Source of the DNA: Candidatus Brocadia sp.
GTDB lineage: Bacteria; Planctomycetota; Brocadiia; Brocadiales; Brocadiaceae
DNA length: 32,000 nucleotides
Assembly (NCBI GenBank): GCA_021650915.1
Contig: CP091279.1
Span: 3,450,001 to 3,482,000 of the forward strand
Direction of reading: 5' to 3'
In this document: piece by piece, positions 1,956 to 29,509 of the stretch
Layout of the letters: each line of letters begins with the position of its first letter
How positions within the stretch are numbered: position 1 is the first letter of the stretch
Notes under the pieces: model-generated
Seen by the model: only the letters and a program-made list of their open reading frames with translations
Told to the model about the DNA's origin: nothing
Database searches by the model: none
Made by a program: the position numbers and the translations under genes

Positions 1956-3191
1956 ATGAAAGATTGGTATGATCTCATTGTTGTTGGTGGTGGTCCTGCA
2001 GGCATGATGGCCGCCGGCCGCGCTGGCGCAAGAGGGAAAAAGGTTATTCTCTTAGAAAAAAAAGACCAACTGGGCAAAAAGCTCCTTATCTGCGCATCGG
2101 GTCGGTGTAATGTAACCAATACGGCCTCTTTGGAGATATTTATAGAGGAATACGGAAAGGGAGGTTCTTTCCTTCGCGCGGCATTACAAAGATTCGATAA
2201 TGAAAAATTATGCTCGTTCCTTCTGTCGTATGGGATAGAAACGGTCGTAGAAAATAAGGGGCGGGTATTTCCAAAAAGCCAGAGGGCAGATTCCGTTTTA
2301 ATGGCGCTTAAAACTTATATGCATGGCCATGAGGTACAAATTCAAACAAATTCAGAAGTTCTGGAACTCAAGGTAGAAAGCAATCGTGTATCCGGTGTGG
2401 AAACCAATCACGGAAACATCTTCGGCAAAAATATTGTAATTGCAACGGGCGGGTGTAGTTATCCTGCCACCGGCAGTACGGGGGATGGCTATAGATTGGC
2501 ATCTTCTGTGGGGCATACCATTTATCCAACATATCCCGCGATCATTGCCTTTGAAACTGAGGAAACATGGGTAAAACCCTTACAAGGAACCCCCTTGAAA
2601 AATGTAAACATCACGGCATATCAATCCGGCAAGAAGATCGCAGAACAGTTTGGTGAGGCGCTTTTTACCCATTATGGCGTATCTGGTCCAGCCATCCTGG
2701 ACATGAGTAAACGCATCGTTGAGTGTTTACACCAAGGATATGTTCAAATACGTATCGACCTTAAACCCAAGCATACGCCAGAAGAACTTGAAAGCATCCT
2801 CCTGGATCAGATTAAACGGCACGGTAGTAAGGCCATGAAATCTTGTCTGACCTTTTTCATTCCTGAAAAATTAACCCCCATTTTCGTGAATCTCTGTAAC
2901 ATTGAACCGCAGAAAAAGGCATCTCAGATAACAACGCCGGAAAGAAAGAGGATCGTGAAACTGCTCAAGGGGCTTTCGCTCACCTCCGTGCGTCACCGGC
3001 CTATCGAGGAAGCGATTGTCACTGCCGGTGGCATAAGCCTGGATGAAGTCGATGCAAAGACCATGCAATCTAAGCTATGGAAAGGCTTATATTTTGCCGG
3101 AGAGGTACTAGATATTGATGGTCCCACAGGTGGATTTAACCTTCAGGCAGCGTTTTCCACCGGATATCTTACCGGGGATTCTGTTGATTAA
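1956..3191 (+). CDS. HI0933/BaiN-like NAD(P)/FAD-dependent flavoprotein
   Basis: 411 aa ORF with ATG start. N-terminal Rossmann motif DLIVVGGGPAGMMAA, GRCNVTN motif and C-terminal GEVLDIDGPTGGFNLQ typical of the HI0933 family. Confidence 0.9.
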   Translation: MKDWYDLIVVGGGPAGMMAAGRAGARGKKVILLEKKDQLGKKLLICASGRCNVTNTASLEIFIEEYGKGGSFLRAALQRFDNEKLCSFLLSYGIETVVENKGRVFPKSQRADSVLMALKTYMHGHEVQIQTNSEVLELKVESNRVSGVETNHGNIFGKNIVIATGGCSYPATGSTGDGYRLASSVGHTIYPTYPAIIAFETEETWVKPLQGTPLKNVNITAYQSGKKIAEQFGEALFTHYGVSGPAILDMSKRIVECLHQGYVQIRIDLKPKHTPEELESILLDQIKRHGSKAMKSCLTFFIPEKLTPIFVNLCNIEPQKKASQITTPERKRIVKLLKGLSLTSVRHRPIEEAIVTAGGISLDEVDAKTMQSKLWKGLYFAGEVLDIDGPTGGFNLQAAFSTGYLTGDSVD

Positions 3192-3331
3192 CATCAAGAA
3201 ATAAGGTATGGTATCTATCCAATAACCTAACGATGTAATGCTCTGACCTATTTCAAATGCTGCACCAGTTGGGTAATTTGGGTGGATTAAGCAAAAATGA
3301 ATCTACCCTTCTACCTTAGTTTGTCCTGGCC

Positions 3332-3826
3332 TTGATTCGGGACAGTGTGTTGGAGTTAGTAAAAAATATTATGGATGACGTGAAGATGTGTGAACATAAG
3401 GATGTCCAGGGTGATACTCAACCGTGGTACAAAGAAGGCCTGAGGTTTGAATGTCAGCGATGTGGCAGGTGTTGTCGCGGTGAACCCGGTGTGGTATGGG
3501 TTCATAAAAGAGAAATAGAAAATATAGCGGCGTTTTTTGGCATTACACAGCAGGCATTTGCAAAAAATTATTTGAGGACGATAAATGACCGGTGTAGTTT
3601 AATAGAATACAGCAACGGCGACTGTATTATGTATGATAACGGCTGCAAGATTTATGATGTAAGGCCGTGTCAGTGCAGGACGTTTCCGTTCTGGAAATCA
3701 ACGCTGGAAAACCGGTCGGAGTGGGAAAAGTTAAAGAAGACCTGTCCCGGCGTGGGTAAAGGGAAGGTGCATACGATGAAAGAGATTGAAGAAAATGTAA
3801 AAATATATGAAGGGCGTTTTGGCTAA
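3332..3826 (+). CDS. YkgJ-family (UPF0153) cysteine-cluster protein
   Basis: CQRCGRCC (CxxCxxCC) motif plus downstream Cys pairs. The track start at 3332 is TTG; an ATG at 3371 (MDDVKM...) is an equally plausible start. Confidence 0.8.
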   Translation: MIRDSVLELVKNIMDDVKMCEHKDVQGDTQPWYKEGLRFECQRCGRCCRGEPGVVWVHKREIENIAAFFGITQQAFAKNYLRTINDRCSLIEYSNGDCIMYDNGCKIYDVRPCQCRTFPFWKSTLENRSEWEKLKKTCPGVGKGKVHTMKEIEENVKIYEGRFG

Positions 3827-4001: not shown

Positions 4002-4433
4002 ATGGGAAGTCCCCCAGCACTAGAAAATCTCTATTCAGAATTAGAAGCACTTTATCAGCGTTTAGAAGAAGAGCTAACCGTGCTCAACCCTGGTTGTAAT
4101 GGGTGTGGGACCTGTTGTAAATTTAGTACCTTTGATCACGTGCTTTATGCAAGCAGTATCGAAGTCGATTTTATTAAACGGAACAGAGAAATACCGGATT
4201 TTAACGTCACAGACAATGTTTGTCCCTTTTTGAAGGATAATCAATGTAGCATCAGGGATTTTCGAACGCTGGGGTGTCGGATTTTCTATTGTAATCCCTC
4301 TTATAAGCAGATATTGTGTGAAATGTATGAAAAATATTATCGCATGATTAAGGAACTGGGCATCAAATATGATGTTTCATGGAGATATTTGCCTTTTCTC
4401 AATCAATTGGTTCGATTTAAATCAACATCATGA
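4002..4433 (+). CDS. Second YkgJ-like cysteine-cluster (CxxCxxCC) protein
   Basis: 143 aa with CNGCGTCC motif and later CPF...C..C...C residues. Confidence 0.75.
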   Translation: MGSPPALENLYSELEALYQRLEEELTVLNPGCNGCGTCCKFSTFDHVLYASSIEVDFIKRNREIPDFNVTDNVCPFLKDNQCSIRDFRTLGCRIFYCNPSYKQILCEMYEKYYRMIKELGIKYDVSWRYLPFLNQLVRFKSTS

Positions 4434-6101: not shown

Positions 6102-6130
6102 CCACCTGCTCCGCGGGTGGATTCTTTTTT
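6102..6130 (+). terminator. Intrinsic-terminator-like hairpin plus T-run with no annotated upstream gene
   Basis: ccacctgc (6102-6109) pairs with gcgggtgg (6113-6120), 8 bp with one G-U, followed by attctttttt. The T-run is also the first bases of repeat module R1. Confidence 0.4.
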
Positions 6131-6347
6131 GTAACTATTCAGCGTACTTTCGCTCACAATCACTACGAGTGAACAAAATATTGATGCTGTAATCCCGAAG
6201 GGATGTCATGATTATAGAAAAAAACGCACCGCCATATTCAACCCCGCAGGGGTAAAATATCGGGAACATAGCGATACTATGCCACCACTACGGGGTTAAC
6301 TATAATTGCATGACACTATAATGTTACTGTGTAAAAACTGGTTTTTT
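6124..6347 (-). repeat. Composite repeat: module R1 (6124-6217) + module C (6191-6340), reverse orientation
   Basis: R1 is near-identical to 13741-13835 and is inverted at 15446-15505. C matches 14050-14190, 27650-27795 and 15287-15445. Confidence 0.85.
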
Positions 6348-6397
6348 GCAACCCTATTTACCCCTTATCAGAAGGTACTGTTTATTTATAAGAAAAG

Positions 6398-6647
6398 GAT
6401 TGCTTCGCTTCACTCGCAATGACAACGTACCGTATCTCATCAAAGGCATAGCCAGCGTCATTGCGGGTACTCCAGTCTGATAAACGCCGGGAGAATAGCG
6501 CCCGCATGTCATCCAAGACAGAGTCAGCGTCAGTGCGAGGGTCTTGTCCGAAGCAATCTCCCGCCTTCACAACGGGGATTTGGTTGCGGCTGTGCTGCGC
6601 TATGAATAATATCGTCTTGTAGGGGCAGGTTTCAAACCTGCCCCTAC
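6398..6647 (+). repeat. Module B long hairpin ('gattgcttcgcttcactcgcaatgaca' ... 'gcgagggtcttgtccgaagcaatc') + 'ggttgcggctgtgctgcgc' module + palindrome gtaggggcaggtttcaaacctgcccctac (6619-6647)
   Basis: Module B recurs at 19489-19629 and, reversed, at 13836-13975. The 29-nt palindrome recurs at 22201-22231. Confidence 0.8.
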
Positions 6648-6746
6648 ACGGTATGGTACACATCGCTATTATTGGGATTTTTCAAAAAACCCGTGGTAAG
6701 ACCTTTCTGTGGAGCATGCTCCAGTGCATCAATTTTTATTTTTCAC

Positions 6747-6775
6747 TTGACAAGAAAAAATAAATTGATATTTTA
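6747..6775 (+). promoter_or_regulatory. Candidate sigma70-type promoter for the riboswitch/surface-protein transcript
   Basis: TTGACA (6747-6752), 16-17 nt spacer, TATTTT/ATTTTA (6769-6775). By eye only. Confidence 0.3.
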
Positions 6776-6826
6776 GTTCTCGCTGTTCTCTCTGTTCTCT
6801 CTGTTCTCTCTGTTCTCTCTGTTCTC
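6776..6826. repeat. 9-bp tandem repeat (gttctctct) x ~5.7
   Basis: gttctcgct gttctctct gttctctct gttctctct gttctctct gttctc. It produces the ENRENREN artefact in ORF 6773-7228. Confidence 0.95.
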
Positions 6827-6847
6827 ATGAGTACAATTATATAACGA

Positions 6848-6995
6848 TAAAGGCAAACCCTGAGTGATCAGGGGGCGCAAAGTAACAGGGTCTTTTGCAG
6901 GGGCGTATTGCATACGCCCTTGTTTGTCCGATAAAAAGACAGCCTTACTGCCGAAGGTAAAGATTTTTGAAAAATCGGTGGTAGGGCTTTTTTTG
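6848..6995 (+). promoter_or_regulatory. Candidate c-di-GMP-I (GEMM-I) riboswitch aptamer (6848-6956) with overlapping intrinsic terminator (6941-6995)
   Basis: GGCAAACC (6852-6859). Hairpin CCCUGA-GUGA-UCAGGG (6858-6873). GGCGCAAAG (6874-6882). AGG+GUCUUUU (6887-6896) pairs with AAAAGAC-AG-CCU (6934-6945). UGCCGA at 6949-6954. Terminator AGCCUUACUGCCGA (6941-6954) pairs with UCGGUGGUAGGGCU (6975-6988), followed by a U-run. Motif recall is from memory; no covariance model was run. Confidence 0.6.
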
Positions 6996-7169
6996 TTTAA
7001 ACCAGAATAAAGAAAGGGGGAGAATGCGGCTGTGTATACCACGTATTTTAGCATGAAAGGGGGGCGCTTTCGCTGATTGAAAAGAAGGGGAGAATTGCCT
7101 GCAAAAGTCAGGCATGCATAATGACCTTGTATTGATTCTATATCGAAGACAAAAGGAGGAAATGGCTTT

Positions 7170-8923
7170 ATGACGGTTGATAAAAAATCCCGAACAGCGC
7201 CATCGTTGCTGAGCGCTATGGTATTCATACTTGCAGTTTTTATAATAACTTTATTCGGATCAGGGGTTACCTATGGACTGAACCATAGTGGTAATATTGG
7301 CAGTAATGAGACATGGTATGCCGCCGATAACCCCCATGTTGTTACGGCGAGTATACAGGTACACAACAATGCCACACTAACGATCGAACCTGGATGTGTG
7401 GTGAGGTTTTTTCCTGGGACAACCCTTTACTTTGGATATAGCAGTGGGGCTGCATTGAAGGCGGTGGGAACGAGCGTCAATCCCATCACCTTCACCTCAA
7501 ATGCCGCTTCCCCTGCGCCCGGAGACTGGAGGGGCATCCTTTTCTTCAATCACACTGATGATGCAGAGACGATTATGGACTATTGCACGGTGGAGTACGG
7601 CGGGAATGGTGGCGAAAACTCCAACATCTATTGCAACGGAGCCTCGCCCGCCATCAAAAATTGCACAATGCGGTATTCTGATGGTTATGCAATGAGCTTT
7701 GGCAGCAACGACCTGGACGGCAATGTGACGGGGAATACCGGCAGCGATAACGGGGTAAATGGTATGGAGGTGCGACAAGGAGATATAACCTCAAGCCGTA
7801 CCTGGATGCCGCAAGGCCTCTACGTTACGGTAACGTCACGGGTACACGTACATTACAACGGCATATTAACGATATCCCCTGGGTGTGTGGTGAAGTTTGA
7901 TCCTGGGGCTTACCTTTATGTAGGATATAGCGGCGGATCGGGTACGCCCCCTGCTTTAAAGGCAGTGGGAACGAGCGGCAATCCCATTACGTTCACCTCA
8001 AATGTCGCTTCCCCTGCGCCCGGTGACTGGAGGGGCATCCTTTTCTTCAATCACACTGATGATGCAGAGACAATTATGGACTATTGCACGGTGGAGTACG
8101 GCGGGAATGGTGGAGAAAACTCCAACATCTTTTGCACTGAAGCCTCGCCCACCATTCAGAATTGCACAATGCGGTATTCTGATGGTTATGCAATGAGCTT
8201 TGGCAGCAACGACCTGGACGGCAATGTGACGGGGAATACCGGCAGCGATAACGGGGTAAATGGTATGGAGGTGCGACAAGGAGATATAACCTCAAGCCGT
8301 ACGTGGATGCAGCAAGGCCTCTACGTGATTGTATCATCATGGGTACACGTACATTACGAAGGCATATTAACGATATCCCCTGGGTGTGTGGTGAAGTTTG
8401 ATCCTGGGGCCTACCTTTTTGTAGGATATCACGCCGCATCGGGTACGCCCCCTGCTTTAAAGGCAGTGGGAACGAGCGGCAATCCCATCACCTTCACCTC
8501 AAATGCCGCTTCCCCTGCGCCCGGTGACTGGAGAGGCATTCTTTTCTTCAATCACACTGATGATGCAGAGACAATTATGGACTATTGCACGGTGGAGTAC
8601 GGCGGGAATGGTGGAGAAAACTCCAACATCTTTTGCACTGAAGCCTCGCCCACCATTCAGAATTGCACAATGCGGTATTCTGATGGTTATGCAATGAGCT
8701 TTGGCAGCAACGACCTGGACGGCAATGTGACGGGGAATACCGGCAGCGATAACGGGGTAAATGGTATGGAGGTGCGACAAGGAGATATAACCTCAAGCCG
8801 TACCTGGATGCCGCAAGGCCTCTACGTTACGGTAACGTCACGGGTACACGTACATTACAACGGCATATTAACGATATCCCCTGGGTGTGTGGTGAAGTTT
8901 GATCCTGGGGCTTACCTTTATGT
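7170..8923 (+). CDS. Secreted beta-helix-repeat surface protein, 5' part (gene interrupted by IS at 8924; the track ORF runs on to 9002 inside the IS)
   Basis: RBS aaggagg at 7153-7159. Signal-peptide-like N-terminus (SLLSAMVFILAVFIITLF). 167-aa repeats (..[41 protein letters not shown]..). The frame continues exactly at 12023 once the IS and one ATGT copy are removed. Confidence 0.85.
7350..8923 (+). repeat. Tandem 501-bp (167-codon) coding repeats, about 3 units, continuing after the IS at 12023-12260
   Basis: Antisense ORFs recur with period 501 (7497/7998/8499 and 7501/8002/8503). The units are near-identical at the nucleotide level. Confidence 0.9.
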
Positions 8924-9125
8924 AGTGTCTGAACGAAAACGCACTTTTTGTAAAAGTGCGAGGTCGATTTTCTATTTACCAATAGATAATTTTAAGATTT
9001 GAGATTAGGGTTTTTGGCAAAAATACTGTTCTTTTACATATTTCCCTTGTTTTCCCCTTTATTTTAGCCTTGTCTGGGCGTACCTGCCTCCCGGCAGACT
9101 GTTTTTCTTCGTGTTTTTTGCTTGC

Positions 9126-10588
9126 TTAGGCGGCTTTTCGCAACTTTTCGCACTGCTTCCGTGCCTTCTCCTGCAGCACGTTTCCCAGCTTGTGCAAATT
9201 CGCAGCTAACACGCCCATTGCACAATATCTTTTAAAGGCATGCAGCCCTTTGTCCGGACACCTATCCAAGCCGTGATGCTCCAAACGATTGATATCCGAT
9301 TCTACCGCCGAGTGCTTGTGCCTTAGCTTCTTAAATGTCTTACCCGATTCCTCTTCCTGTTCCGCCTTATTCTTCTTGCCCTTCTTGGGAAGGATTACCT
9401 CTGGTATATACAAACTCAGCAACTCTTTATTCTCTTTCTTGTAAAAACCTTTATCAAAACTTATACTCTTTATTGTGCCTTCTCCGTAACGGCTCAACAA
9501 CCTATCTGCCAATGGAATTACCAACGATACATCCGCCTGTTTTTCTCCTACCACATGGTCCACGATGAAACCCCACTGATCGCTTGCTACCAGAATATTA
9601 TGTCCCAACTCTACCCTTTTGTTTGACTTGCCTTTGTACAGCCACTCCGTATGCGGCTCAAACAACGAATGAACCTTTTCTGCCGCCGGTATTACCTCAT
9701 CCCGGATCACCCTTCTCTCCACCAGGTCTATCTGTTTATTCAACATCCCGTGAAAATACTCCAGTGTCCCTATTTTCCCTGCATGCTTGTCTACCTGGTT
9801 CGTCGTTAGCACCTTTTCGTAGATGGCTAACAGACTCGCTCCTATCTTTTCACTCAAACCCCTCGATAATTCCAAGTAACTCCTCACATGCTCTTCCTTG
9901 TTTTTCCCCCCGCTGCTTGACGCCTTTGCGCTTATCCTCATCAGCTTTTTTAACTCTCTCCTCCAATATTTGCTCTTGCGCCATCCTTTCCCCGCCAGGA
10001 TGCCTTCCTCTATTGCATCCTCTATCATGTCCAGACTCTTGCGTCCCGCATCCCACAATAAATTCATATCGGCGGAAAGTGTACATTCGTCTCTAACACA
10101 TACGTATCCACCTTAATACACAGTCCTTCGTCCTTTTTTTTAACCAACTGATGCCCCGATGATATCACCACTTCATTTATCTGCCTGAGGGTCTCCTCAT
10201 CCAACAATCTTATATTGTCCTTGATGCTCTGCATCGAAAAAACCTTCGCCTCTCCAAATGCCGTCTCAACCCCCATTATCTGCCTGATAAGTTTGTGATG
10301 GTTGGCAAAATCCTCCAACCTGTCATAATCGGCATCTAACCCTAATCTTACCACCGACAACACCAAAATATGCCATAAATCCATCCCATATCTTCCCGTC
10401 TTTTTCTTCCCCTTCGTTACCTTCGCCTCTAATATCCGGAATACCTCCTCGTTCAACTCCGGTGTAACATAGATATGTTGCAACGCCCTCAGTATCGGTG
10501 GTAGCTCATCTCGACTCTTTATTGGCAGTTTTACCCCTGAAATGGGTATGATGCCAAGCTTCAATTGCTGCTCAAATCTCTTTCTCAT
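9126..10588 (-). pseudogene. DDE transposase (IS4/IS5/IS1182-like, DDE_Tnp_1-type) split by a frameshift at about 10064-10070
   Basis: ORFs 10064-10588 and 9126-10067 overlap by 4 nt. The junction reads ..VDTYVLETNVHFPPI* / MNLLWDA.., where such transposases usually read HFPTDxxLL. Total span is 1463 nt, one short of a multiple of 3. C-terminal motif: HSAVESDINRLEHHGLDRC. Confidence 0.8.
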
Positions 10589-10612
10589 CTTCTATCGAAT
10601 GTCCTTTGGCTA

Positions 10613-11855
10613 GTATAACGTTTCACAAAAACATTGACAAATACTATGTTAGTAGATCGAATTTTTTCCAGCGATGAATAACGGGGGCTTCATTAATTTC
10701 AGATATTCCTTTTAATATTCTATTTCGCAATTCGACAACAGAATCAACCCTAATGTGCTTTAAGAAGGTTCGGGCCATTTTACCAAATAGTGTTTCCACC
10801 AGATTAAGCCAGGAGCCGTGCTTTGGAGTATGAACATAAACGAATCTATTTGGCCGGCTTGATAGATATCGCAAGGTCTCTTTTGAAATATGCGCAGAAT
10901 GATTGTCTAAAACAATTCGTATCGTATATGCTGATGGATAAAAGGCATCCAGTTCTTTTAAAAGCTCGATAAATTCTTTGCTTCTGTGACGTTCATGAAC
11001 CTGGGCTATTACATGCCCTGTATGCAAATCTAAAGCGGCTAATATGCTCACGGTTCCCAAGCGTTTATATTCATAATCTCGGAGAACCTGAGGACATTTA
11101 CCTGCTATAGGTTTTAAGTCTGGTGCAATATTTTTTATTGCCTGAACACCGGGCTTTTCATCTACGGAAACGGTAATCGTTCGATTGCCAGAAATTTTTT
11201 CTGAAGCATCTTGTTTGTTTTGCAGGTTAACCTCTTGGTAAACCATAAGGACGTCTTCCATTTTACGCTTAAATTCTGGATCCCGTTTCTCTAAATAATA
11301 GCGTATCTTATGTGGTTGTACGGGATGTTCTTTTAATATTCTATGAATCGTGGCTTTTGAGGCCTTTGAAAGACACGCATATCCCTCCTGGGGGGCATAT
11401 TTTCTTGTGTGTTTTGCTAAAAGGCTTTGCGTCCACAGTTCTGCTGCATATCCATGGTCTTTGGGTTTTGTGCATGCAATATTTACAACCCACATCTTTG
11501 CATTCTCGGTAATTGTGGGCTCTTTGGGCCGATGATATTTATCTCTTAGCGCTTCTTCCGGGCCTAACGCCAATGCCTTTTCAATGTATTTATAAATGGT
11601 TTCCCTGCTTAGCCCTATCGATTTTTGAATTGCTGTTATAGATTCTTCTTGATACTTCTTAAGAAGCACTTGTGCTCTCTTTACTTCCCGAAGAGGAGCA
11701 GTGCGAGATCGAGCAGTGTTTTCTAATTTGCATAACTGTTCCGGACTAAGAGATAATTTTGGCTTTTTACTAATTCCCGACACCTTGGCCTCCTTTTTTA
11801 AGGCCAATATAAATGCCGGATACTTATTTGTCAAGGTTTTTATGAAACGTTATAC
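10613..11855 (-). mobile_element. IS630-family insertion sequence nested inside the IS4/IS5-like element, TA target duplication
   Basis: About 32-bp terminal inverted repeats gtataacgtttcacaaaaacattgacaaata (10613-) and gtataacgtttcataaaaaccttgacaaata (complement of -11855). TA flanks both ends (10611-10612, 11856-11857). Confidence 0.85.
10644..11834 (-). CDS. IS630-family DDE transposase (apparently intact)
   Basis: 396 aa. N-terminal HTH-like region and a DDE triad in contexts VSVDEKPGVQA / IVLDNHSAHIS / SWLNLVETLFGKM. Confidence 0.9.
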   Translation of the reverse strand: MTNKYPAFILALKKEAKVSGISKKPKLSLSPEQLCKLENTARSRTAPLREVKRAQVLLKKYQEESITAIQKSIGLSRETIYKYIEKALALGPEEALRDKYHRPKEPTITENAKMWVVNIACTKPKDHGYAAELWTQSLLAKHTRKYAPQEGYACLSKASKATIHRILKEHPVQPHKIRYYLEKRDPEFKRKMEDVLMVYQEVNLQNKQDASEKISGNRTITVSVDEKPGVQAIKNIAPDLKPIAGKCPQVLRDYEYKRLGTVSILAALDLHTGHVIAQVHERHRSKEFIELLKELDAFYPSAYTIRIVLDNHSAHISKETLRYLSSRPNRFVYVHTPKHGSWLNLVETLFGKMARTFLKHIRVDSVVELRNRILKGISEINEAPVIHRWKKFDLLT

Positions 11856-12018
11856 TAGTGGGTTAATGAACCGAATATTTGGACTCTTTATACCCAGAAT
11901 CCCTTCATTTTCGCCATATTTTACCCTTTTACCCGAAAAAATTCAATGACTTTCATGAACATTTTTCACCAGCTTCTCCTTACTTTACAGGGCTCTGGGG
12001 GGTTTCCGTTCAAACACT

Positions 12019-13673
12019 ATGTAGGATATAGCGGCGGATCGGGTACGCCCCCTGCTTTAAAGGCCGTGGGAACGAGCGGCAATCCCATCACCTTCACCTC
12101 AAATGCCGCTTCCCCTGCGCCCGGTGACTGGAGAGGTATCCGTTTCTCCGATCACACCAATGATGCAGAGACGATTATGGACTATTGCACGGTGGAGTAC
12201 GGCGGGCATAGTGGCGAAAACTCCAACATCTATTGCAACGAAGCCTCGCCCGCCATTCAGCGTTGTCTTATGAGAAATTCCGATGGTAATGGAATTCTTG
12301 CGACAGGTAGCGGCGCACATCCCTTGATCTCTTGTTCAACGATAAGAAATAACAACTATGGTGTCTATGCACAAAGCAGCGCCAATCCAACCGTAGTCAA
12401 TTGCAATATTCATGGCAACACCAGTTACGGCATCTACAATGCCACCAGTTCCCTTACCCTCGCCGCTGCGGATAACTGGTGGGGACACACCAGCGGCCCA
12501 TCCGGCGTGGGGCCAGGTTCCGGCGATGCCGTGAGCAACTCTGTGGACTATACCCCATGGATGGCCTCATTTGACAGTTGTCTTGAGACGATTGTTTTAA
12601 GCCCGGCGTCTGCAACGAATCCGATCGGCAGTCAGCATACGGTGACGGCAACCGTGACAAATGACGCCCTTGAGCCCGTTGCTGATATTGCCGTATCATT
12701 CGAAATTGTCTTTGGCCCGCATGCCGGGGCAACGGGGACAGATACGACCGATTCCAACGGACAGGCGACATTTACCTACACAGGGACGCTGGAAGGCACG
12801 GACATAATTGAGGCGAGCTTTACCGATTTCCACGGCAGGACCATAACATCAGGTCCGGTCACAAAGACGTGGGAATCGTCATCCTCGACTCCGACTCCGA
12901 CTCCGACGCCAACGCCTTCACCAACGCCGACACCGGAGCCAACACCAAGTCCAACTCCGTCTCCGACACCAAGTCCGACCCCGAGTCCGACACCAACCCC
13001 TGCAGCATGTCCTTGTCCGGACGCAGAGGCGTGCTATTCCTTTGACGAAGGGAATGGGAATGTGGCTGGCGACTCGTCGGGCAATGGTCGTAACGGCGCA
13101 ATCGTTGGCGCGGTCTGGACCATCGGAAATGACGGCAGTGGTCTGAGTTTTGACGGGGTTGACGATGAGGTATCAGTCCCGACCATGAACAGCGAGGAAG
13201 TCTCCTTTAGCGCATGGTTCTATAAGAATGCAAATGATCCGTTGGGCTTTGATTTCATCTTCGACGGAATCAGGATGCATTCTAATTCACAATTGAATGA
13301 AGGATTTGCTCTCAAATTCTTAAAGAGGAATCCAAACGTAGTGGGTTTTGCTGTTGTAACACAAAACTCAAACGGAAGAAGGAAGCTGAGGACTGCGTCA
13401 TACGATCTGGGTAATTCCGTAGGTAGCTGGTATCATGTTGCAGGCACGTACGACAAGGCCACCGGCGAGCAGAAGTTGTATGTCAATGGGCAGCTGGTCA
13501 GGATGGTAAGACACCCGGCAGGAAACGGCATCGTTCCGCTGACCTCTTATCCTGGCATGAAAATCGGGAATTCCTTATCGAGAAAAGGTTGTTTCGATGG
13601 AGTCATCGATGGGGTTTGTATTTCCCATCGGGCATTGACCGAGCAGGAGGTGCTGGACATTTTTAACAATTAA
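12019..13673 (+). CDS. Surface protein, 3' part: last beta-helix repeats, Big-like domain, Pro/Thr/Ser linker, LamG/ConA-like lectin domain
   Basis: Host sequence resumes at 12023 (..[28 protein letters not shown]..). The first ~25 codons of track ORF 11946-13673 are IS sequence. Also seen: ..[20 protein letters not shown].. (Ig-like), a PT/PS linker at about 12888-13001, and ..[13 protein letters not shown]...WYHVAGTYD...LYVNGQLV (LamG-like). Confidence 0.85.
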
Positions 13674-13713: not shown

Positions 13714-13740
13714 GTTTATCGTATTACCGCGCAAAATCTT

Positions 13741-14195
13741 TCTTTTTTGTAACTATTCAGCGTGCTTTCGCTCACAATCACTACGAGTGAACAAAATATT
13801 GATGCTGTAATCCCGAAGGGATGTCATGATTATAGCCTGGCGCAGCAGCACAGCCGCAACCAAATTTCCTTTATGAAATCGGGGAGATTGCTTCGGAAAA
13901 GGCCCTCGCAATGACAGCGACCATGCACTTTGATGGCACACTGCATGTTGTCATTGCGAGTGAAGCGAAGCAATCTTTCACTCATAAAAAACGGCACCTC
14001 CTGAAAGAGGTTTGTGAAAAAACTTACAAAAAAAAGAAGTTTTTATACAGTAATACTATAGTGTCATGCAATTATAGTTAACCCCGTGGGGGTGGCATAG
14101 TATCGCTATTTTCCCGATATTTCACCCCTGCGGGGTTGAATATGGTGGCGCGTTTTTTCTATAATCATGTCATCCCTTCGGGATTTTTCAAAAAG
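13741..14195. repeat. Largest composite repeat locus: R1 (13741-13835), B reversed (13836-13975), A reversed (13985-14060), C (14050-14190)
   Basis: Each module matches copies at 6124-6610, 15130-15535, 19403-19629 and 27622-27800. ORF 13753-13941 is a translation artefact of the repeat. Confidence 0.9.
14136..14165 (+). promoter_or_regulatory. Repeat-borne promoter-like element TTGAAT-N18-TATAAT
   Basis: TTGAAT at 14136-14141, TATAAT at 14160-14165, followed by catgtcatcccttcgggatt (C(UUCG)G hairpin). The same arrangement occurs in the copies at 27742-27771, 6211-6241 (minus) and 15307-15337 (minus, TTAAAT). Confidence 0.35.
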
Positions 14196-15068
14196 CTAAA
14201 TTGTCACGAGCTTTTTCATTTCCTCAGACAAGGGCAACGGCCTGAAGCCCAATGAACGGGCCTTTGTGTTGTCAAGTGAGACGTCCGGCGGTCTGGGTGC
14301 CGCCATAATGACCTCTTTTTGCCTGGAGGGTATTAACCTGGCCGCTGAGATGTTAAGGGTGTTCATCAGCATCGCTCCAAACTCATACCGGGAGATACGC
14401 TCATTGCCGCCGATATGGAGGGGGCCGTGTACTTTTTCAAGGGACAGAAAAATTCCTGACGCCGCTGTGTCTGCGCTTACCGGAGTTCTGAATTCATCGG
14501 TAAAGAGCTGCAATTCCCTGCCTTCGCGCATCGCCGCTATCATGGGCTGAATGAAGCTTGTGGCGCCGGGCCCCGAAATACCAAACATGAGGGAGAGGCG
14601 GCAAACCGCAGTCATGGGATGGCGTTTCATCATGCCTTCCTCAGCCAATGCCTTCTGTTCACCGTAAAAGTTGACCGGACAAACGGGGTCTTCTTCACGA
14701 TACGGAGGGTTTAAGCCATCGAAGACCATGTCGGTTGAAGTAAAAACACAAGGGATTCCATAGTCTGCACAAAGGCCGGCAATATTGACTGAAGCATCCA
14801 CATTCACCCTTTGAGATTCTGCCCGATGGGTTTGACAAAAATTCAAACTCGTTTTCGCTGCGGTGTGAATTACCGCATCAGGACGTACCGTCTGAAAGAG
14901 CTTCTTCAATGCCGCAAAGTCCGTCAAATCGACTTTTGTGATTTTTACACCGGCAATAGCTTCAACGTGGGAAAAGGCCGTTCCGGTGATTTCCCATGTT
15001 TGCCTTGCAGCCTGGCAAATATTCCATCCCAAAAATCCACAGGCGCCCGTAACGAGCAATTTTTTCAT
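14196..15068 (-). CDS. RmlD-like NAD(P)-dependent sugar reductase/epimerase (dTDP-4-dehydrorhamnose reductase family)
   Basis: Start reassigned to the ATG at 15068 (MKKLLVTGACGFLG, Rossmann motif). YGEQK catalytic Y-x3-K. The upstream 85 codons of track ORF 14196-15323 are repeat sequence. Confidence 0.85.
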   Translation of the reverse strand: MKKLLVTGACGFLGWNICQAARQTWEITGTAFSHVEAIAGVKITKVDLTDFAALKKLFQTVRPDAVIHTAAKTSLNFCQTHRAESQRVNVDASVNIAGLCADYGIPCVFTSTDMVFDGLNPPYREEDPVCPVNFYGEQKALAEEGMMKRHPMTAVCRLSLMFGISGPGATSFIQPMIAAMREGRELQLFTDEFRTPVSADTAASGIFLSLEKVHGPLHIGGNERISRYEFGAMLMNTLNISAARLIPSRQKEVIMAAPRPPDVSLDNTKARSLGFRPLPLSEEMKKLVTI

Positions 15069-15129: not shown

Positions 15130-15286
15130 ATAGTCTTGCTGGATAAAATCTTTCTTTTTTTGCAAGGTTTTACAACCCCCTTCACCCCCTTTCCTAAGGG
15201 GGACTTAGTTGTAGTTTTTCTAAGGGGGAATTGGTTGCGGCTGTGCTGCGCTATGTAACCATTCAGCGAAAACTGCAAGACCGGAA
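15130..15286. repeat. Modular repeat (A + duplicated 'ctaaggggga' hairpin module + 'ggttgcggctgtgctgcgc')
   Basis: Matches 1597-1702, with the taaggggga segment duplicated. Confidence 0.8.
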
Positions 15287-15445
15287 AATCCCGAAGGGAT
15301 GTCATGATTATAGAAAAAAGCACACCACCATATTTAACCCCGTAGGGGTGAAATATCGGGAAAATAATGATACCATGCCACCCCTATACGGGGTTCACCA
15401 TACTTGCATAACAACATGCTATAATCATGACATCCCTTCGGGATT
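15287..15445. mobile_element. 159-bp MITE-like unit (module C) with perfect 27-bp terminal inverted repeats
   Basis: aatcccgaagggatgtcatgattatag (15287-15313) is the exact reverse complement of ctataatcatgacatcccttcgggatt (15419-15445). The interior matches the module C copies. Confidence 0.55.
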
Positions 15446-15535
15446 CTGTAATCAATATTTTGTTTACCCGTAGTGATTGTGGGCAAAAGTACGCTGCATA
15501 GTTACGATTTTATTGCGATTTTTCAAAAGTATTAC
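15446..15535 (+). repeat. Module R1, inverted relative to the 6124 and 13741 copies
   Basis: ctgtaatcaatattttgtttacccgtagtgattgtgggcaaaagtacgctgcatagttac versus the reverse complement of 13745-13812. Confidence 0.8.
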
Positions 15536-19402: not shown

Positions 19403-19629
19403 TATAGTATTACCGTATAAAATCTTTCTTTTTTTTGTAAGTTTTTTCACAAATCCCTTTCAGGAGGTACCGTTTTTTATGAGTGAAAGATTGCTTCGCT
19501 TCACTCGCAATGACAACGTGCAGTGTGGTGCTATCAAGGTGCAGATCGCTGTCATTGCGAGGGTCTTGTCCGAAGCAATCTCCCGCTTTCACAACGAGGA
19601 ATTGGTTGCGGCTGTGCCGCGCTATAAAT
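19403..19629. repeat. Modular repeat (A + B long hairpin + 'ggttgcggctgtgccgcgc')
   Basis: Reverse complement of 13836-14060. ORFs 19389-19709, 19410-19592 and 19483-19737 are artefacts of it. Confidence 0.85.
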
Positions 19630-19687
19630 TTTCTCTTGAAAAAGTTTCACCTGGAATCGTCTTCCGGACTTATTGTGGATACTATTC

Positions 19688-20305
19688 ATGCATCTGCGGT
19701 GGAAAATAGGTATTTGTCTCTCTTTTCTTACCCTTGAGTTCCTGGGTTGTTACGTGCCTCCGGTTTCCAGGCCCACCCCGGCCGTAAGGCCTCGCGAAAG
19801 CGCCGGTATGCCGGTGAAGCCACAGAAAAAGGAAGAGCCTTATATCGTTAGCCAGCTTGATTCTTATTCTGTAAGAAACTGGCGATACATTGTTATTCAC
19901 CATAGCGCCTCAGCGTCCGGTAGCGCCGCTCAATTTGATAAATACCACAGGGAAAAAAGACGGTGGGAGAATGGCCTGGGCTATCATTTTGTAATCGGTA
20001 ATGGAAACGGCGCCCCTGACGGAAAAATTGAGATTGGCAATCGGTGGATAAGTCAGATAGATGGCGCCCATGCCGGCGTCCAGGAATACAATCACTATGG
20101 CATAGGAATCTGCCTGGTGGGGAATTTTAATGAATCGTACCCAACGGCGGCACAGATGGCATCCCTTTCAGCCCTGGTAGAGTATTTGCAGAACAGATGC
20201 CGGATTCCTGCTGAGCGTGTGATCATGCACCGGAACTGCAGGGAGACGGACTGTCCGGGGCGGAAATTTCCTTATTATAAGCTGCTTGCAAATACCTATT
20301 TCTAG
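19688..20305 (+). CDS. N-acetylmuramoyl-L-alanine amidase (Amidase_2/PGRP fold), possibly a lipoprotein
   Basis: YIVIHHSA...GYHFVIGNG...AHAG...GIGICLVGNF...HR motifs. ATG at 19688. N-terminal hydrophobic stretch ends in FLGC. Confidence 0.85.
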   Translation: MHLRWKIGICLSFLTLEFLGCYVPPVSRPTPAVRPRESAGMPVKPQKKEEPYIVSQLDSYSVRNWRYIVIHHSASASGSAAQFDKYHREKRRWENGLGYHFVIGNGNGAPDGKIEIGNRWISQIDGAHAGVQEYNHYGIGICLVGNFNESYPTAAQMASLSALVEYLQNRCRIPAERVIMHRNCRETDCPGRKFPYYKLLANTYF

Positions 20306-22200: not shown

Positions 22201-22254
22201 GGTAGGGGCAGGTTTCAAACCTGCCCCTACCATGTGCCTCTGCCAGAGGCACAT
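22201..22254 (-). terminator. Tandem palindromes downstream of uvrB (possible terminator)
   Basis: ggtaggggcaggtttcaaacctgcccctacc (22201-22231) and atgtgcctctgccagaggcacat (22232-22254). On the minus strand the second hairpin is followed by gtatttctttt. Confidence 0.45.
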
Positions 22255-25867: not shown

Positions 25868-26018
25868 GTAACACTTTAGTTTTTTGAAAAATTACCATAA
25901 TAACGATGTTACCGCACGGTGTAGGGGCGAAGCATTTGCCATAAATTGGCATAAATGTATTCACACCCCAAGCTGGCAAATGCTTCGCCCCTACTTTTTC
26001 AAAAAACTAAAGTGTTAC
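25868..26018. repeat. 151-bp compound inverted repeat (24-bp outer arms + 20-bp inner arms)
   Basis: Outer arms gtaacactttagttttttgaaaaa (25868-25891) / tttttcaaaaaactaaagtgttac (25995-26018). Inner arms gtaggggcgaagcatttgcc (25921-25940) / ggcaaatgcttcgcccctac (25975-25994). All are perfect, with a 29-nt asymmetric bulge and a 34-nt loop. Confidence 0.9.
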
Positions 26019-27622: not shown

Positions 27623-27800
27623 AAAAAACTTACAAAAAAAGAAGTTTTTACTGGGTAATACTATAGTGTTATGCAATTATGGTTAACCCCGTATAGGTGG
27701 CATAGTATCGTTATTTTCCCGATATTTCACCCCTTACAGGGTTGAATAGGGTGGCGCGCTTTTTCTATAATCATGTCATCCCTTCGGGATTTTTCAAAAA
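27622..27800 (+). repeat. Modular repeat (A reversed + C), same orientation as 14030-14190
   Basis: acttacaaaaaaagaagtttttactgggtaatactatagtgttatgcaattatggttaaccccg...ctataatcatgtcatcccttcgggatttttcaaaaaac. Confidence 0.85.
27742..27771 (+). promoter_or_regulatory. Repeat-borne promoter-like element TTGAAT-N18-TATAAT
   Basis: TTGAAT at 27742-27747 and TATAAT at 27766-27771. It points toward the transposase stub and the GlcF-like gene. Confidence 0.35.
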
Positions 27801-27993: not shown

Positions 27994-28179
27994 TGCGCCA
28001 AGACAGTAAAAATTCCTGTCCCATGAAATTCCGGTAGCGTGTCAGAAACGATCGGCGGTGCATGGTCAAAAGCATTGCCGAAAAAAGCCTCCCTTTTTTA
28101 TTTTCTCTTTGCTACAATTACTTTTTATAACAAAAGAGAATACCTTTTCCGATGCAACGATAATAAGATGGGATAATGC

Positions 28180-29409
28180 ATGAATACGAAGGCGTGGCGA
28201 GACGAAATTAACAAGTGCGCCAAATGCGGCAAATGCCGGTCAATTTGTCCCGTCTTTATCGAAACGGGCAATGAATCTATGGTGGCGCGTGGCCGCATCA
28301 GCCTGGCCGAGGCATTGCGAAACGGAGAAATTTTTCACACGGAACTTTTGAGGGATTACCTCCTGTCCTGTAAAAAATGCCTCCGCTGCTCCAGCATCTG
28401 CCCATCGGGTGTTGATTATGATATCATTATCCAAACCATGCTTGACGATCTGGCAAAGCACCTCGGAATATGGCTAATACCCCGGATCGTATTCAGGCTA
28501 TTCCTGACCCGCAGGTGGCTCTTTAACCTGCTTTTAAAAACTGCCAGTATCTTTCAACGTCTCGTCCCGTTAAAGCGTCGCGGCACCATGCGACACCTCC
28601 CCTTTATGCTTATGGGTGGCAGATGGATTCCTCCTTTGGCGAAGAAGTCGGTATTAAGAAACCATCGAAATACGAAGAAGATAAAAGATCCGAAAATGAA
28701 GGTGGGATTTTATGTCGGTTGTCTCATCAATTACGTCTATACCGATATTGCCGATGCCGTAATTGAGGTATTAAACCATCTTGGGGTTGAAGTCGTTGTG
28801 CCCTCAAAACAGTTGTGCTGTGGCATTCCGGCGCGATCCCTGGGAGATGCCAAAACAGCGCGAAGATTGGCGGAGGCAAACGTGGAGGTGTTTGAAAAGG
28901 CCAACGTCGATTTTATTATCAATGCGTGCGCTACCTGTGGAAGGACATTGAAAAGAGATTATCTTCATATCCTGGGAGATCGCGCCTTACCATTCACGAA
29001 TAAAATATACGATGTATCCGAGTTTATTGAAAAATATTTTTCATATGAAACAAAGACACTCAGCACGAAGATTACCTACCATGACCCTTGTCATCTCTAC
29101 TGGGGTCAAAATATATCAAAGCAACCCAGGGATATTTTGAAGCGTTCTTCCGCGTTTCAGGAAATGGATACCCCGGAACGATGCTGTGGTGGCGGAGGGG
29201 TATTTAATCTGTTGCACTATGACATCTCCACAAAGATTGGGGAATACAAGGCAAAAGCCATTGAAAAAAGTGGCGCGGAAGCTGTAGCAACGGGCTGTCC
29301 AGGGTGTCGGCTTCAAATCGAAGACCTCCTTGCTGCAAGAGGTTCTGAGGTCAAATGCACCCACACCATCCAGGTGTTACGAGATGCACTGATTTCAACC
29401 ACGAAATAG
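28180..29409 (+). CDS. GlcF/HdrD-like Fe-S oxidoreductase subunit (two 4Fe-4S ferredoxin motifs + two CCG domains)
   Basis: CAKCGKCRSICP and CKKCLRCSSICP, then ..GCLINY...QLCCGIP.. and ..HDPCHL...ERCCGGGG... Confidence 0.85.
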   Translation: MNTKAWRDEINKCAKCGKCRSICPVFIETGNESMVARGRISLAEALRNGEIFHTELLRDYLLSCKKCLRCSSICPSGVDYDIIIQTMLDDLAKHLGIWLIPRIVFRLFLTRRWLFNLLLKTASIFQRLVPLKRRGTMRHLPFMLMGGRWIPPLAKKSVLRNHRNTKKIKDPKMKVGFYVGCLINYVYTDIADAVIEVLNHLGVEVVVPSKQLCCGIPARSLGDAKTARRLAEANVEVFEKANVDFIINACATCGRTLKRDYLHILGDRALPFTNKIYDVSEFIEKYFSYETKTLSTKITYHDPCHLYWGQNISKQPRDILKRSSAFQEMDTPERCCGGGGVFNLLHYDISTKIGEYKAKAIEKSGAEAVATGCPGCRLQIEDLLAARGSEVKCTHTIQVLRDALISTTK

Positions 29410-29509
29410 CCTCAGCCTGTTAAAGCTATGGTAAACCGGGCGTGAATACGTGTTTACCGTTGTGTTCGTTTCAAGCAAACATGTAGCAACAGCGACACAG
29501 GAGTCAAGT

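Follow-up and report, generated by a model that had tools for sequence, protein, structure and literature searches.

A predicted class-I c-di-GMP riboswitch with an overlapping terminator ahead of an interrupted beta-helix surface-protein gene in Candidatus Brocadia

Riboswitches that sense the second messenger cyclic di-GMP (c-di-GMP) are recognisable from sequence, and one such candidate lies in a 32,000-nucleotide stretch of Candidatus Brocadia sp. (assembly GCA_021650915.1, contig CP091279.1, positions 3,450,001 to 3,482,000), an anammox planctomycete. This whole stretch is called the window here, and its own coordinates are used throughout. The segment 6842-6995 is read, with a probability of about 0.9, as a class-I c-di-GMP riboswitch with a transcription-termination platform, predicted to act as an ON switch for the surface-protein gene behind it. 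The element belongs to the c-di-GMP-I family and conserves the nucleotides equivalent to the known ligand contacts, its aptamer and terminator overlap, and both structures are conserved and covary in relatives. An earlier note, made from the letters of this DNA alone, had pointed to the same place, and all of its coordinates agree with the sequence.

Both strands of the window were scanned by Infernal against all 4227 Rfam families at the curated gathering thresholds, and the sole match was RF01051 (c-di-GMP-I), located at 6842-6955 on the plus strand with 58 bits against a cut-off of 35 and an E value of 4.9e-9. The match is full-length, covering model positions 1-87 of 87, and the family assignment proposed in the earlier note is thereby placed well over the curated threshold. 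RF01786 (c-di-GMP-II), which had been suggested for comparison, was matched neither in the gathering scan of the window nor in a scan of 6500-7300 with the 4227 families at E≤10. The window agrees with the RF01051 consensus at AAAGGCAAAC, CGCAAAG, GACAGCC, and CUGCCGAA; in the Infernal alignment, the tetraloop-receptor columns are deleted and 37 nt are inserted at the tip of the second helix. When region 6842-6998 was folded, it reached a z of -5.3, which none of 200 shuffles equalled.

The extent of the aptamer (6842..6955, plus strand) is given by the RF01051 match, an explicit pair list, and covariation. P1, placed by consensus alignment together with the pair list, joins C6845 to G6953 and G6846 to C6952. 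The block GGCAAACC occupies 6852-6859, and the first helix, P1a, comprises G6853-C6878, C6854-G6877, and the stem 6858-6863/6868-6873, so that the hairpin CCCUGA-GUGA-UCAGGG spans 6858-6873 around a GUGA loop at 6864-6867. Next comes GGCGCAAAG (6874-6882), which the earlier note had implied to be unusual; a G at the position concerned is in fact common in this clade. An AA linker separates the two helices, and the second helix, P1b, is made of 6881-6884/6946-6949, 6887-6889/6943-6945, and 6890-6896/6934-6940. Here AGG and GUCUUUU (6887-6896) pair with AAAAGAC and CCU (6934-6945), between which an AG bulge lies at 6941-6942, while a further bulge, AC, occupies 6885-6886. All 20 aptamer pairs on the explicit list are standard in the window.

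Aligned to the Rfam consensus, G6852, A6879, and C6951 would be the ligand contacts, corresponding to G20, A47, and C92 of the Vibrio cholerae aptamer Vc2, and C6876-G6942 would be the equivalent of its interhelix pair C44-G83. The Vc2 numbering was carried over to the consensus by way of the Vc2 sequence. In the Vc2 structure, G20, A47, and C92 contact the ligand, and the interhelix pair is C44-G83 (PMC4744006, PMC5888326). A G at position 20 also discriminates against cyclic GMP-AMP (cGAMP), the relatives that sense cGAMP having A there (PMC6140456); with G6852, the window does not carry this mark of the cGAMP type (GEMM-Ib). The sister elements described below are uninformative on cGAMP specificity, since the pattern by which they were found demanded G at position 20.

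The loop of the first helix is GUGA and has no receptor, and the sister elements carry GUGA, GCAA, GUAA, or GCGA in its place. GEMM elements with a GYRA loop lack the receptor, which is expected only with GAAA (PMC1950547). The GUGA loop, the missing receptor, and the bulges near the base of the second helix therefore identify the element with the receptor-less form of GEMM-I in the original GEMM paper (PMC1950547).

The 3' part of the aptamer is also the first arm of a putative intrinsic terminator on the plus strand, defined by the pair list, folding, and covariation, with its 5' arm at 6941-6954, its loop at 6955-6974, its 3' arm at 6975-6988, and a U7 run at 6989-6995. The 5' arm AGCCUUACUGCCGA pairs with UCGGUGGUAGGGCU at 14 of 14 positions (11 Watson-Crick and three G-U), exactly as the earlier note had described. 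Alone, this hairpin folds at -21.5 kcal/mol (z = -3.7; 0 of 200 shuffles equal). Its 5' arm includes the G83 equivalent, the entire 3' strand of the lower second helix, the C92 equivalent, and the 3' side of P1. Since the strand 6941-6954 is common to the aptamer and the terminator, the two cannot coexist, and the mutual exclusion claimed for them holds.

Both alternatives were folded, as had been proposed. A transcript extending to 6956 folds unaided into both aptamer helices and the tip hairpin (-40.9 kcal/mol), whereas in the full leader the terminator fold is the minimum, at -59.1 kcal/mol versus -48.0 kcal/mol with the aptamer enforced. By these models, a gap of about 11 kcal/mol would need to be overcome by tightly bound ligand and co-transcriptional kinetics. 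An aptamer that folds by itself, in a leader predicted to favour the terminator once complete, is the usual picture for a ligand-stabilised antiterminator.

Overlapping terminators of this kind were reported for 78 of 322 GEMM elements in 2007, and where the terminator overlaps the 3' side of the second helix, expression is expected to rise with the ligand (PMC1950547). The mechanism in the window is likely a transcriptional ON switch. Transcription would probably begin just past a promoter-like site at 6747-6774, and both aptamer helices would form first. c-di-GMP bound at the junction (G6852, A6879, C6951) would hold the second helix and P1 in place, so that 6941-6954 would be unavailable to 6975-6988, no terminator would form, and the polymerase would read through into the surface-protein gene. 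In the ligand-free state, the more stable terminator (6941-6988 with U7) would capture the shared strand and transcription would stop at about 6995. The net effect would be a gene that is ON at high c-di-GMP, encoding a secreted adhesin-like protein with beta-helix, immunoglobulin (Ig)-like, and lectin domains. The ON logic of the earlier note is the same model that the discovery paper proposes for the class (PMC1950547).

Relatives of the locus provide the comparative evidence. The closest relatives of the N-terminal 251 amino acids of the protein (52-68% identity) are encoded in Candidatus Brocadia and other Planctomycetota metagenome-assembled genomes. The same riboswitch is detected by Rfam 100-400 nt upstream of the homologous gene in six of these loci (L001, L002, L005, L152, L153, and L154). 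Among the homologues of the Brocadia clade, six of eight have the same riboswitch and terminator, and a seventh (L004) has it split by an insertion sequence (IS). Every intact copy finishes with one common terminator, GCCUUACUGC...GCAGUAAGGC and then U6-7. A metagenome scan with the pattern GATAAAGGYAAA-N16-GRCGCAAAGTAA added at least 115 stretches, and across all loci and the window the pattern matches at least 129 times, with the Brocadia-type 3' strand in at least 102. At least 83 of those (at least 64 distinct) pass a strict terminator rule, and most that fail do so only for a U in place of the last C of the arm, a contig end, or a duplicated arm. The RF01051 score of the window, 58 bits, is typical of the intact sisters (50-72 bits).

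Covariation was assessed in a trimmed, anchor-based alignment of 63 elements, with counts taken from 62 distinct sister sequences that are mutually related. For the aptamer, 98.7% of cells are paired, compared with 26-48% in slid controls and 0 of 500 shuffles as good; for the terminator, 91% are paired, compared with 28-62% in slid controls, with shuffles as good in 0 of 500 cases on four of five measures and 1 of 500 on the fifth. These paired percentages are inflated, because the search pattern fixes 24 aptamer positions (alignment columns 7-18 and 35-46) and the terminator 3' arm was selected by at least six contiguous pairs. Only the free columns are informative, namely those of the first helix, those of the 3' strand of the second, and those of the terminator from its seventh pair onward, and compensatory changes are present there in both structures. 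In the aptamer they affect seven pairs, five of the six stem pairs of the first helix and two of the second helix. In the terminator they affect four pairs, among them 6947/6982, where A-U gives way to G-C four times, and 6950/6979, where G-C gives way to A-U six times. The earlier note had named the absence of covariation in homologous loci as what would speak against it, and the result is in its favour.

The constraints imposed by the search pattern and the arm selection are two of several points that weigh against the riboswitch reading. The transcription start, the binding of the ligand, the termination, and the direction of control in vivo are predictions from sequence. Moreover, one Brocadia homologue (L003) and a more distant one (L155) are without the riboswitch. 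The remaining points each bear on an alternative explanation, and concern the score of a sibling family, the distance from terminator to gene, and the state of the gene itself.

The sibling family is RF03167 (c-di-GMP-I-GGC), which scores 59.0 bits, equal to its cut-off of 59, at 6843-6956 in the scan of 6500-7300 at E≤10, about level with RF01051. It is the sole other match of the same clan in that scan and is unlisted in gathering mode, where RF01051 is kept. Most sister elements also score higher with RF03167 (60-72 bits) than with RF01051, and the same fold could accordingly serve another ligand, either 3',3'-cGAMP as in the GEMM-Ib type or whatever ligand the RF03167 family senses. The binding core, however, does not follow the variant. 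The printed consensus lines of the two families differ at one core place, GACGCGAAG in RF03167 and GACGCAAAG in RF01051, where the variant consensus has G (CGCGAAG) and the window and every aligned sister have the canonical A (CGCAAAG); the RF03167 match line is blank there. We take this column, in which the variant has G in place of the canonical A47, to define the GGC variant, whose name would stand for positions 20, 47, and 92; for the column, this assumption is backed only by comparing the two printed lines. The element does share with RF03167 its overall architecture, the lack of a receptor, a plain second-helix loop, and a modelled P1, and the equal or higher bit score of that family comes from the receptor-less second helix and the modelled P1 rather than from the binding site. 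G6852 at the position-20 equivalent, where G discriminates against cGAMP (PMC6140456), likewise argues against the first of the two ligands. The element is therefore filed under canonical c-di-GMP-I and not under the GGC variant, and a different ligand appears unlikely given the canonical core.

The second point is the spacer. The end of the U-run lies 175 nt before the ATG, and a promoter-like site, TTGCCT-16-CATAAT at 7095-7122, falls within a block of this spacer that is conserved in L001 and L004. The conserved 3' leader (7093..7169, plus strand) also holds a hairpin, TGCCTG/CAGGCA, at 7097-7115 and the ribosome-binding site (RBS) AAGGAGG at 7153-7159. DNA similarity of the leader to both loci begins at about 7093, and the block spans 7093-7150 in the window, about 3933-3990 in L001, and about 3921-3975 in L004; its hairpin is altered on both sides, TGCCTG/CAGGCA versus TGCCAG/CTGGCA. 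A promoter-like site within so conserved a block makes some riboswitch-independent transcription possible. Taken further, the hairpin and U-run at 6941-6995 might be a constitutive or unrelated terminator and the gene might have its own promoter near 7095-7122, which would agree with the conservation of the block from about 7093 to the RBS independently of the 5' half of the aptamer. The promoter match is nevertheless weak (9 of 12), its -10 box is not conserved in L001, and no gene ends upstream on the plus strand in need of a terminator here. In more than 80 loci the aptamer itself supplies the 5' arm of the terminator, and the two covary, which makes no sense for an unrelated terminator; this explanation is very improbable.

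For the riboswitch reading, transcription is expected to start near 6781, downstream of the first promoter-like site already mentioned. This site (6747..6774, plus strand) consists of TTGACA, a 16-nt spacer with TG, and TATTTT, scoring 10 of 12 in a consensus scan, and sister loci have TTGAC-type boxes at a similar upstream distance. The earlier note had placed the aptamer about 220 nt upstream of the RBS; the upstream placement stands, and the distance from the 3' end of the aptamer is about 200 nt. When the spacer 6996-7175 was folded for a second regulatory structure, it showed no excess stability (z +1.1). A sigma-54 promoter at about 7097-7125 was considered and dropped, as its GG/GC spacing proved unfit on inspection, and a minus-strand open reading frame (ORF) at 6773-7228 that overlaps the element is taken as spurious, as it has no family match.

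The presumed 5' leader contains one further feature: between the putative promoter and the aptamer, at 6776..6826 on the plus strand, a CU-rich 9-nt tandem repeat, GTTCTCTCT, is present in 5.7 copies (Tandem Repeats Finder, score 95). The repeat is absent from the 151 related loci examined. In the whole-leader fold it pairs with purine boxes at about 7012-7025 and about 7082-7095 and with the RBS (z -2.5). The repeat might vary in copy number (phase variation) or act as an anti-Shine-Dalgarno sequence.

The third point against the riboswitch reading is that its target gene is interrupted, and selection on this copy may have lapsed. In the product of the 5' part of the gene (7170..8924, plus strand), the N-terminus resembles a signal peptide and a beta-helix module of about 167 amino acids occurs about 3.5 times; the internal DNA repeats are 88-92% identical. 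An ISNCY-family insertion of 3093 bp (8925..12017) follows, flanked by the 6-bp duplication TATGTA (8919-8924 and 12018-12023). Its inverted repeats, GTGTCTGAACG and GTGTTTGAACG, are imperfect, its transposase gene lies on the minus strand in two pieces (9126-10067 and 10064-10588), and an IS630-family element with 34-nt inverted repeats is nested within it (10610-11858). The 3' part of the gene (12024..13673, plus strand) encodes beta-helix repeats, the Ig-like domain Big_1, a Pro/Thr/Ser linker, and the ConA-like domain Laminin_G_3, according to Pfam and NCBIfam.

Because the insertion breaks the gene, the ORF behind the riboswitch (7170-9002) has only 610 amino acids; it has no Pfam match of its own and no exact match in public assemblies. 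Across the excised insertion the frame runs on as ...GAYLYV|GYSGGSG..., the 5' ORF ending in ...DPGAYLYV and the motif resuming in the ORF at 11946-13673. The restored gene would encode about 1134 amino acids with a signal-peptide-like N-terminus, about four beta-helix modules, Big_1, the Pro/Thr/Ser linker, and the lectin-like Laminin_G_3. The homologues, at most 60% identical for the best of them, are right-handed parallel beta-helix repeat proteins of Candidatus Brocadia with 855-1100 amino acids and the Pfam domains Beta_helix, NosD, and Big_1. The label of a surface, adhesin-like protein is therefore reasonable, and the beta-helix surface protein announced in the earlier note is borne out in kind; it is not giant, as had been said, and the IS has broken it. 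As judged from the sequence, what is left under the switch is at most a truncated product, with 585 residues from the gene and a 25-aa tail read from the IS.

The element might accordingly be a decaying relic, a leader that is no longer selected or working since nested IS elements split its target at 8925-12017. The neighbourhood is rich in IS remnants and dispersed repeats, and the related L004 copy even has its aptamer split by an IS. On the other hand, the copy in the window has lost none of the conserved aptamer positions, its two helices, P1, and terminator are whole, and the score lies where those of intact sisters lie (58 versus 50-72 bits). The perfect flanking duplication and the intact reading frame on either side point to a recent insertion, and the truncated secreted product could still be made. 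A relic is very improbable on this evidence, and a working switch, as first read, is preferred.

The 37-nt insertion reported by Infernal corresponds to the variable distal part of P1b (6897..6933, plus strand), a hairpin GCAGGGGCGUAU-UGC-AUACGCCCUUGU at 6897-6923 with an unpaired 3' stretch after it. In the fold it lengthens P1b by 12 pairs, and since the tips of sister elements range from about 6 to about 145 nt, its length is within the range of the family. The earlier note had taken this insertion for one of the dispersed palindromes of the window. It is not a copy of them, since GGGGCGTATTGCATACGCCC occurs once in the window even with three mismatches allowed, though its 8-nt arm start, G(Y)AGGGGC, is indeed shared with three dispersed GTAG-type palindromes. 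The latter (6618-6648, 22201-22230, and 25920-25995) start with GTAGGGGC, end with GCCCCTAC, and differ in their inner sequences, and GYAGGGGC occurs 7 times in the window against 1.4 expected. These three look like GTAG-tagged repetitive extragenic palindromic (REP) elements (PMC3733652). The tip hairpin starts with GCAGGGGC and resembles them in this respect; it differs from REP elements, which have many dispersed copies and a GTAG tag, in being single-copy with the tag GCAG and in a 3' arm that pairs only as plus-strand RNA. Two C-to-U changes in that arm preserve G-U pairing in the plus-strand RNA only, which fits a palindrome now maintained within an RNA helix. A near-identical hairpin is found at the same spot in one sister riboswitch (L136), and other sisters have GTAG...CTAC palindromes at the tip, two of them in tandem in L097.

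The surroundings of the element contain other repeats. A dispersed repeat of up to about 480 bp is found at 6122-6607, 13740-14201, 15285-15505, 19403-19629, and 27623-27800 (also at 1596-1702), with copies 83-99% identical; it occurs in the metagenome contigs L080 and L043 as well, and the riboswitch promoter follows about 140 nt after the end of one copy. The segment 4435-5055 is a remnant resembling the end of the ISNCY element. Further along, 28081-29496 has 84% DNA identity to Candidatus Brocadia sp. WS118.

The genes behind the sister switches include those for Big_5/Big_1 Ig-repeat proteins of 800-1200 amino acids, beta-propeller and RCC1 proteins with Big_1, a prepilin-type N_methyl/DUF1559 protein, N-acetylmuramoyl-L-alanine amidases, sigma-54 activators, and a PqqD-like protein, a mix typical of the class ("environment, membrane, motility"). 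Because sister switches precede amidase genes, a riboswitch was also sought before the Amidase_2 gene of the window (19673-20305), and none was found there even at E≤1. This gene is 51% identical to the amidase genes of the L040 group, which stand behind sister riboswitches; in the window, the place upstream is taken by a copy of the dispersed repeat.

Several sister loci depart from the simple module. L004 (2304-3865, from Candidatus Brocadia sp. WS118) carries the orthologue of the L001 riboswitch, with an IS of about 1.4 kb lodged in the second-helix tip and splitting the element. This IS contains a 318-aa ORF, its 36-nt inverted repeats are perfect, and the duplication is CAATTAAA. What still precedes the gene is the 3' half of the aptamer with the terminator, and Rfam detects the 5' half only (38.7 bits). 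Five others (L075 at 4037-4240, L119, L137, L147, and L125) have a second (A)GCCUUACU copy downstream of the aptamer that serves as the terminator 5' arm, and in their minimum-energy folds aptamer and terminator coexist. In these models, an antiterminator could arise from pairing between the copy and the first strand of the second helix, and such elements may be OFF switches derived from the ON module. Additionally, complete aptamer-plus-terminator modules stand in tandem within one leader in L059 (three in 1.7 kb), L105 (three at 3059-3505, with 176-nt spacing), L087 (two at 512-782), and L154 (317-458 and 1192-1344), and large Ig-repeat surface-protein genes follow these arrays. On the Brocadia contig of L002, a second riboswitch (6442-6787) precedes a 58-aa ORF (MSEKISAEHIGHEVHDLPASQTRKPFAEPKLTFIEPKLTKHGDATRITGNGFFSAFVP), and the sister riboswitch of L037 precedes the PqqD-like protein; together these hint at a c-di-GMP-controlled peptide locus of the kind that makes ribosomally synthesised and post-translationally modified peptides.

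For the window itself, these findings change little. The element is picked up by the standard Rfam model, the 2007 description of the class already covers its architecture, and, with an IS-broken target, a perfect riboswitch is no proof of a working gene. What carries some news value is the size, uniformity, and variants of the Brocadia regulon. In full-text literature searches, no paper was found that links riboswitches with anammox bacteria or describes this class in such a host. Pure cultures of anammox bacteria cannot be obtained, and the granules into which they aggregate matter for technology; this aggregation has been linked to c-di-GMP. It can be suggested, tentatively and with slightly more doubt than confidence, that Brocadia-group anammox bacteria run an unusually large c-di-GMP-I regulon from one stereotyped module. 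The module consists of the aptamer and the terminator AGCCUUACUGCC / GCAGUAAGGCU-U6, and at least 64 distinct versions, collected in the metagenome scan, precede Ig-repeat and beta-helix surface proteins, prepilin-like proteins, cell-wall amidases, and sigma-54 activators. It seems to evolve by simple steps: by tandem triplication (L059, L105); by duplication of the strand held in common, so that the terminator becomes independent and the logic may turn to OFF (L075, L119, L137, L147, L125); and by colonisation of the second-helix tip by GTAG-type palindromes or even an IS (L097, L107, L004). If this is true, c-di-GMP would directly set the repertoire of surface and matrix proteins that underlies anammox granule formation. 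A direct RNA link from c-di-GMP to a family of secreted beta-helix, Ig, and lectin proteins would yield a concrete list of candidate matrix or adhesion genes, and also a template open to in vitro work for which no genetics is needed.

Nothing in the class, its receptor-less form, a terminator that overlaps the aptamer, or control over adhesins is new, and the element of the window is an additional, ordinary predicted member. Its nearest counterpart is the receptor-less GEMM-I form of Weinberg et al. 2007 (PMC1950547, Fig. 2B), with which it shares the two-helix aptamer, the AAA linker, the junction nucleotides, a GNRA-type loop, the absence of the 11-nt receptor, bulges near the base of the second helix, surface or envelope genes downstream, and a terminator whose 5' arm is the 3' strand of the second helix, with ON logic. 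It differs in the 37-nt extension of the second helix with its 12-pair hairpin, in a terminator arm that has three G-U pairs and reaches through C92 and P1, and in its host, an anammox planctomycete. Bc2 of Bacillus thuringiensis, which lies before the collagen adhesion gene cap (Tang et al. 2016, cited in PMC11218506), likewise combines a class-I aptamer, a surface adhesin, and ON control; Bc2 raises transcription of the adhesin gene at high c-di-GMP and is used as an ON control in PMC11218506. It differs in phylum and adhesin family and in having been tested by experiment, whereas the element of the window is predicted from its sequence. Vc2, the solved reference aptamer, has in G20, A47, C92, and the interhelix C-G pair the counterparts of G6852, A6879, C6951, and C6876-G6942; unlike the element described here, it docks a GAAA loop in an 11-nt receptor and is without such a terminator.

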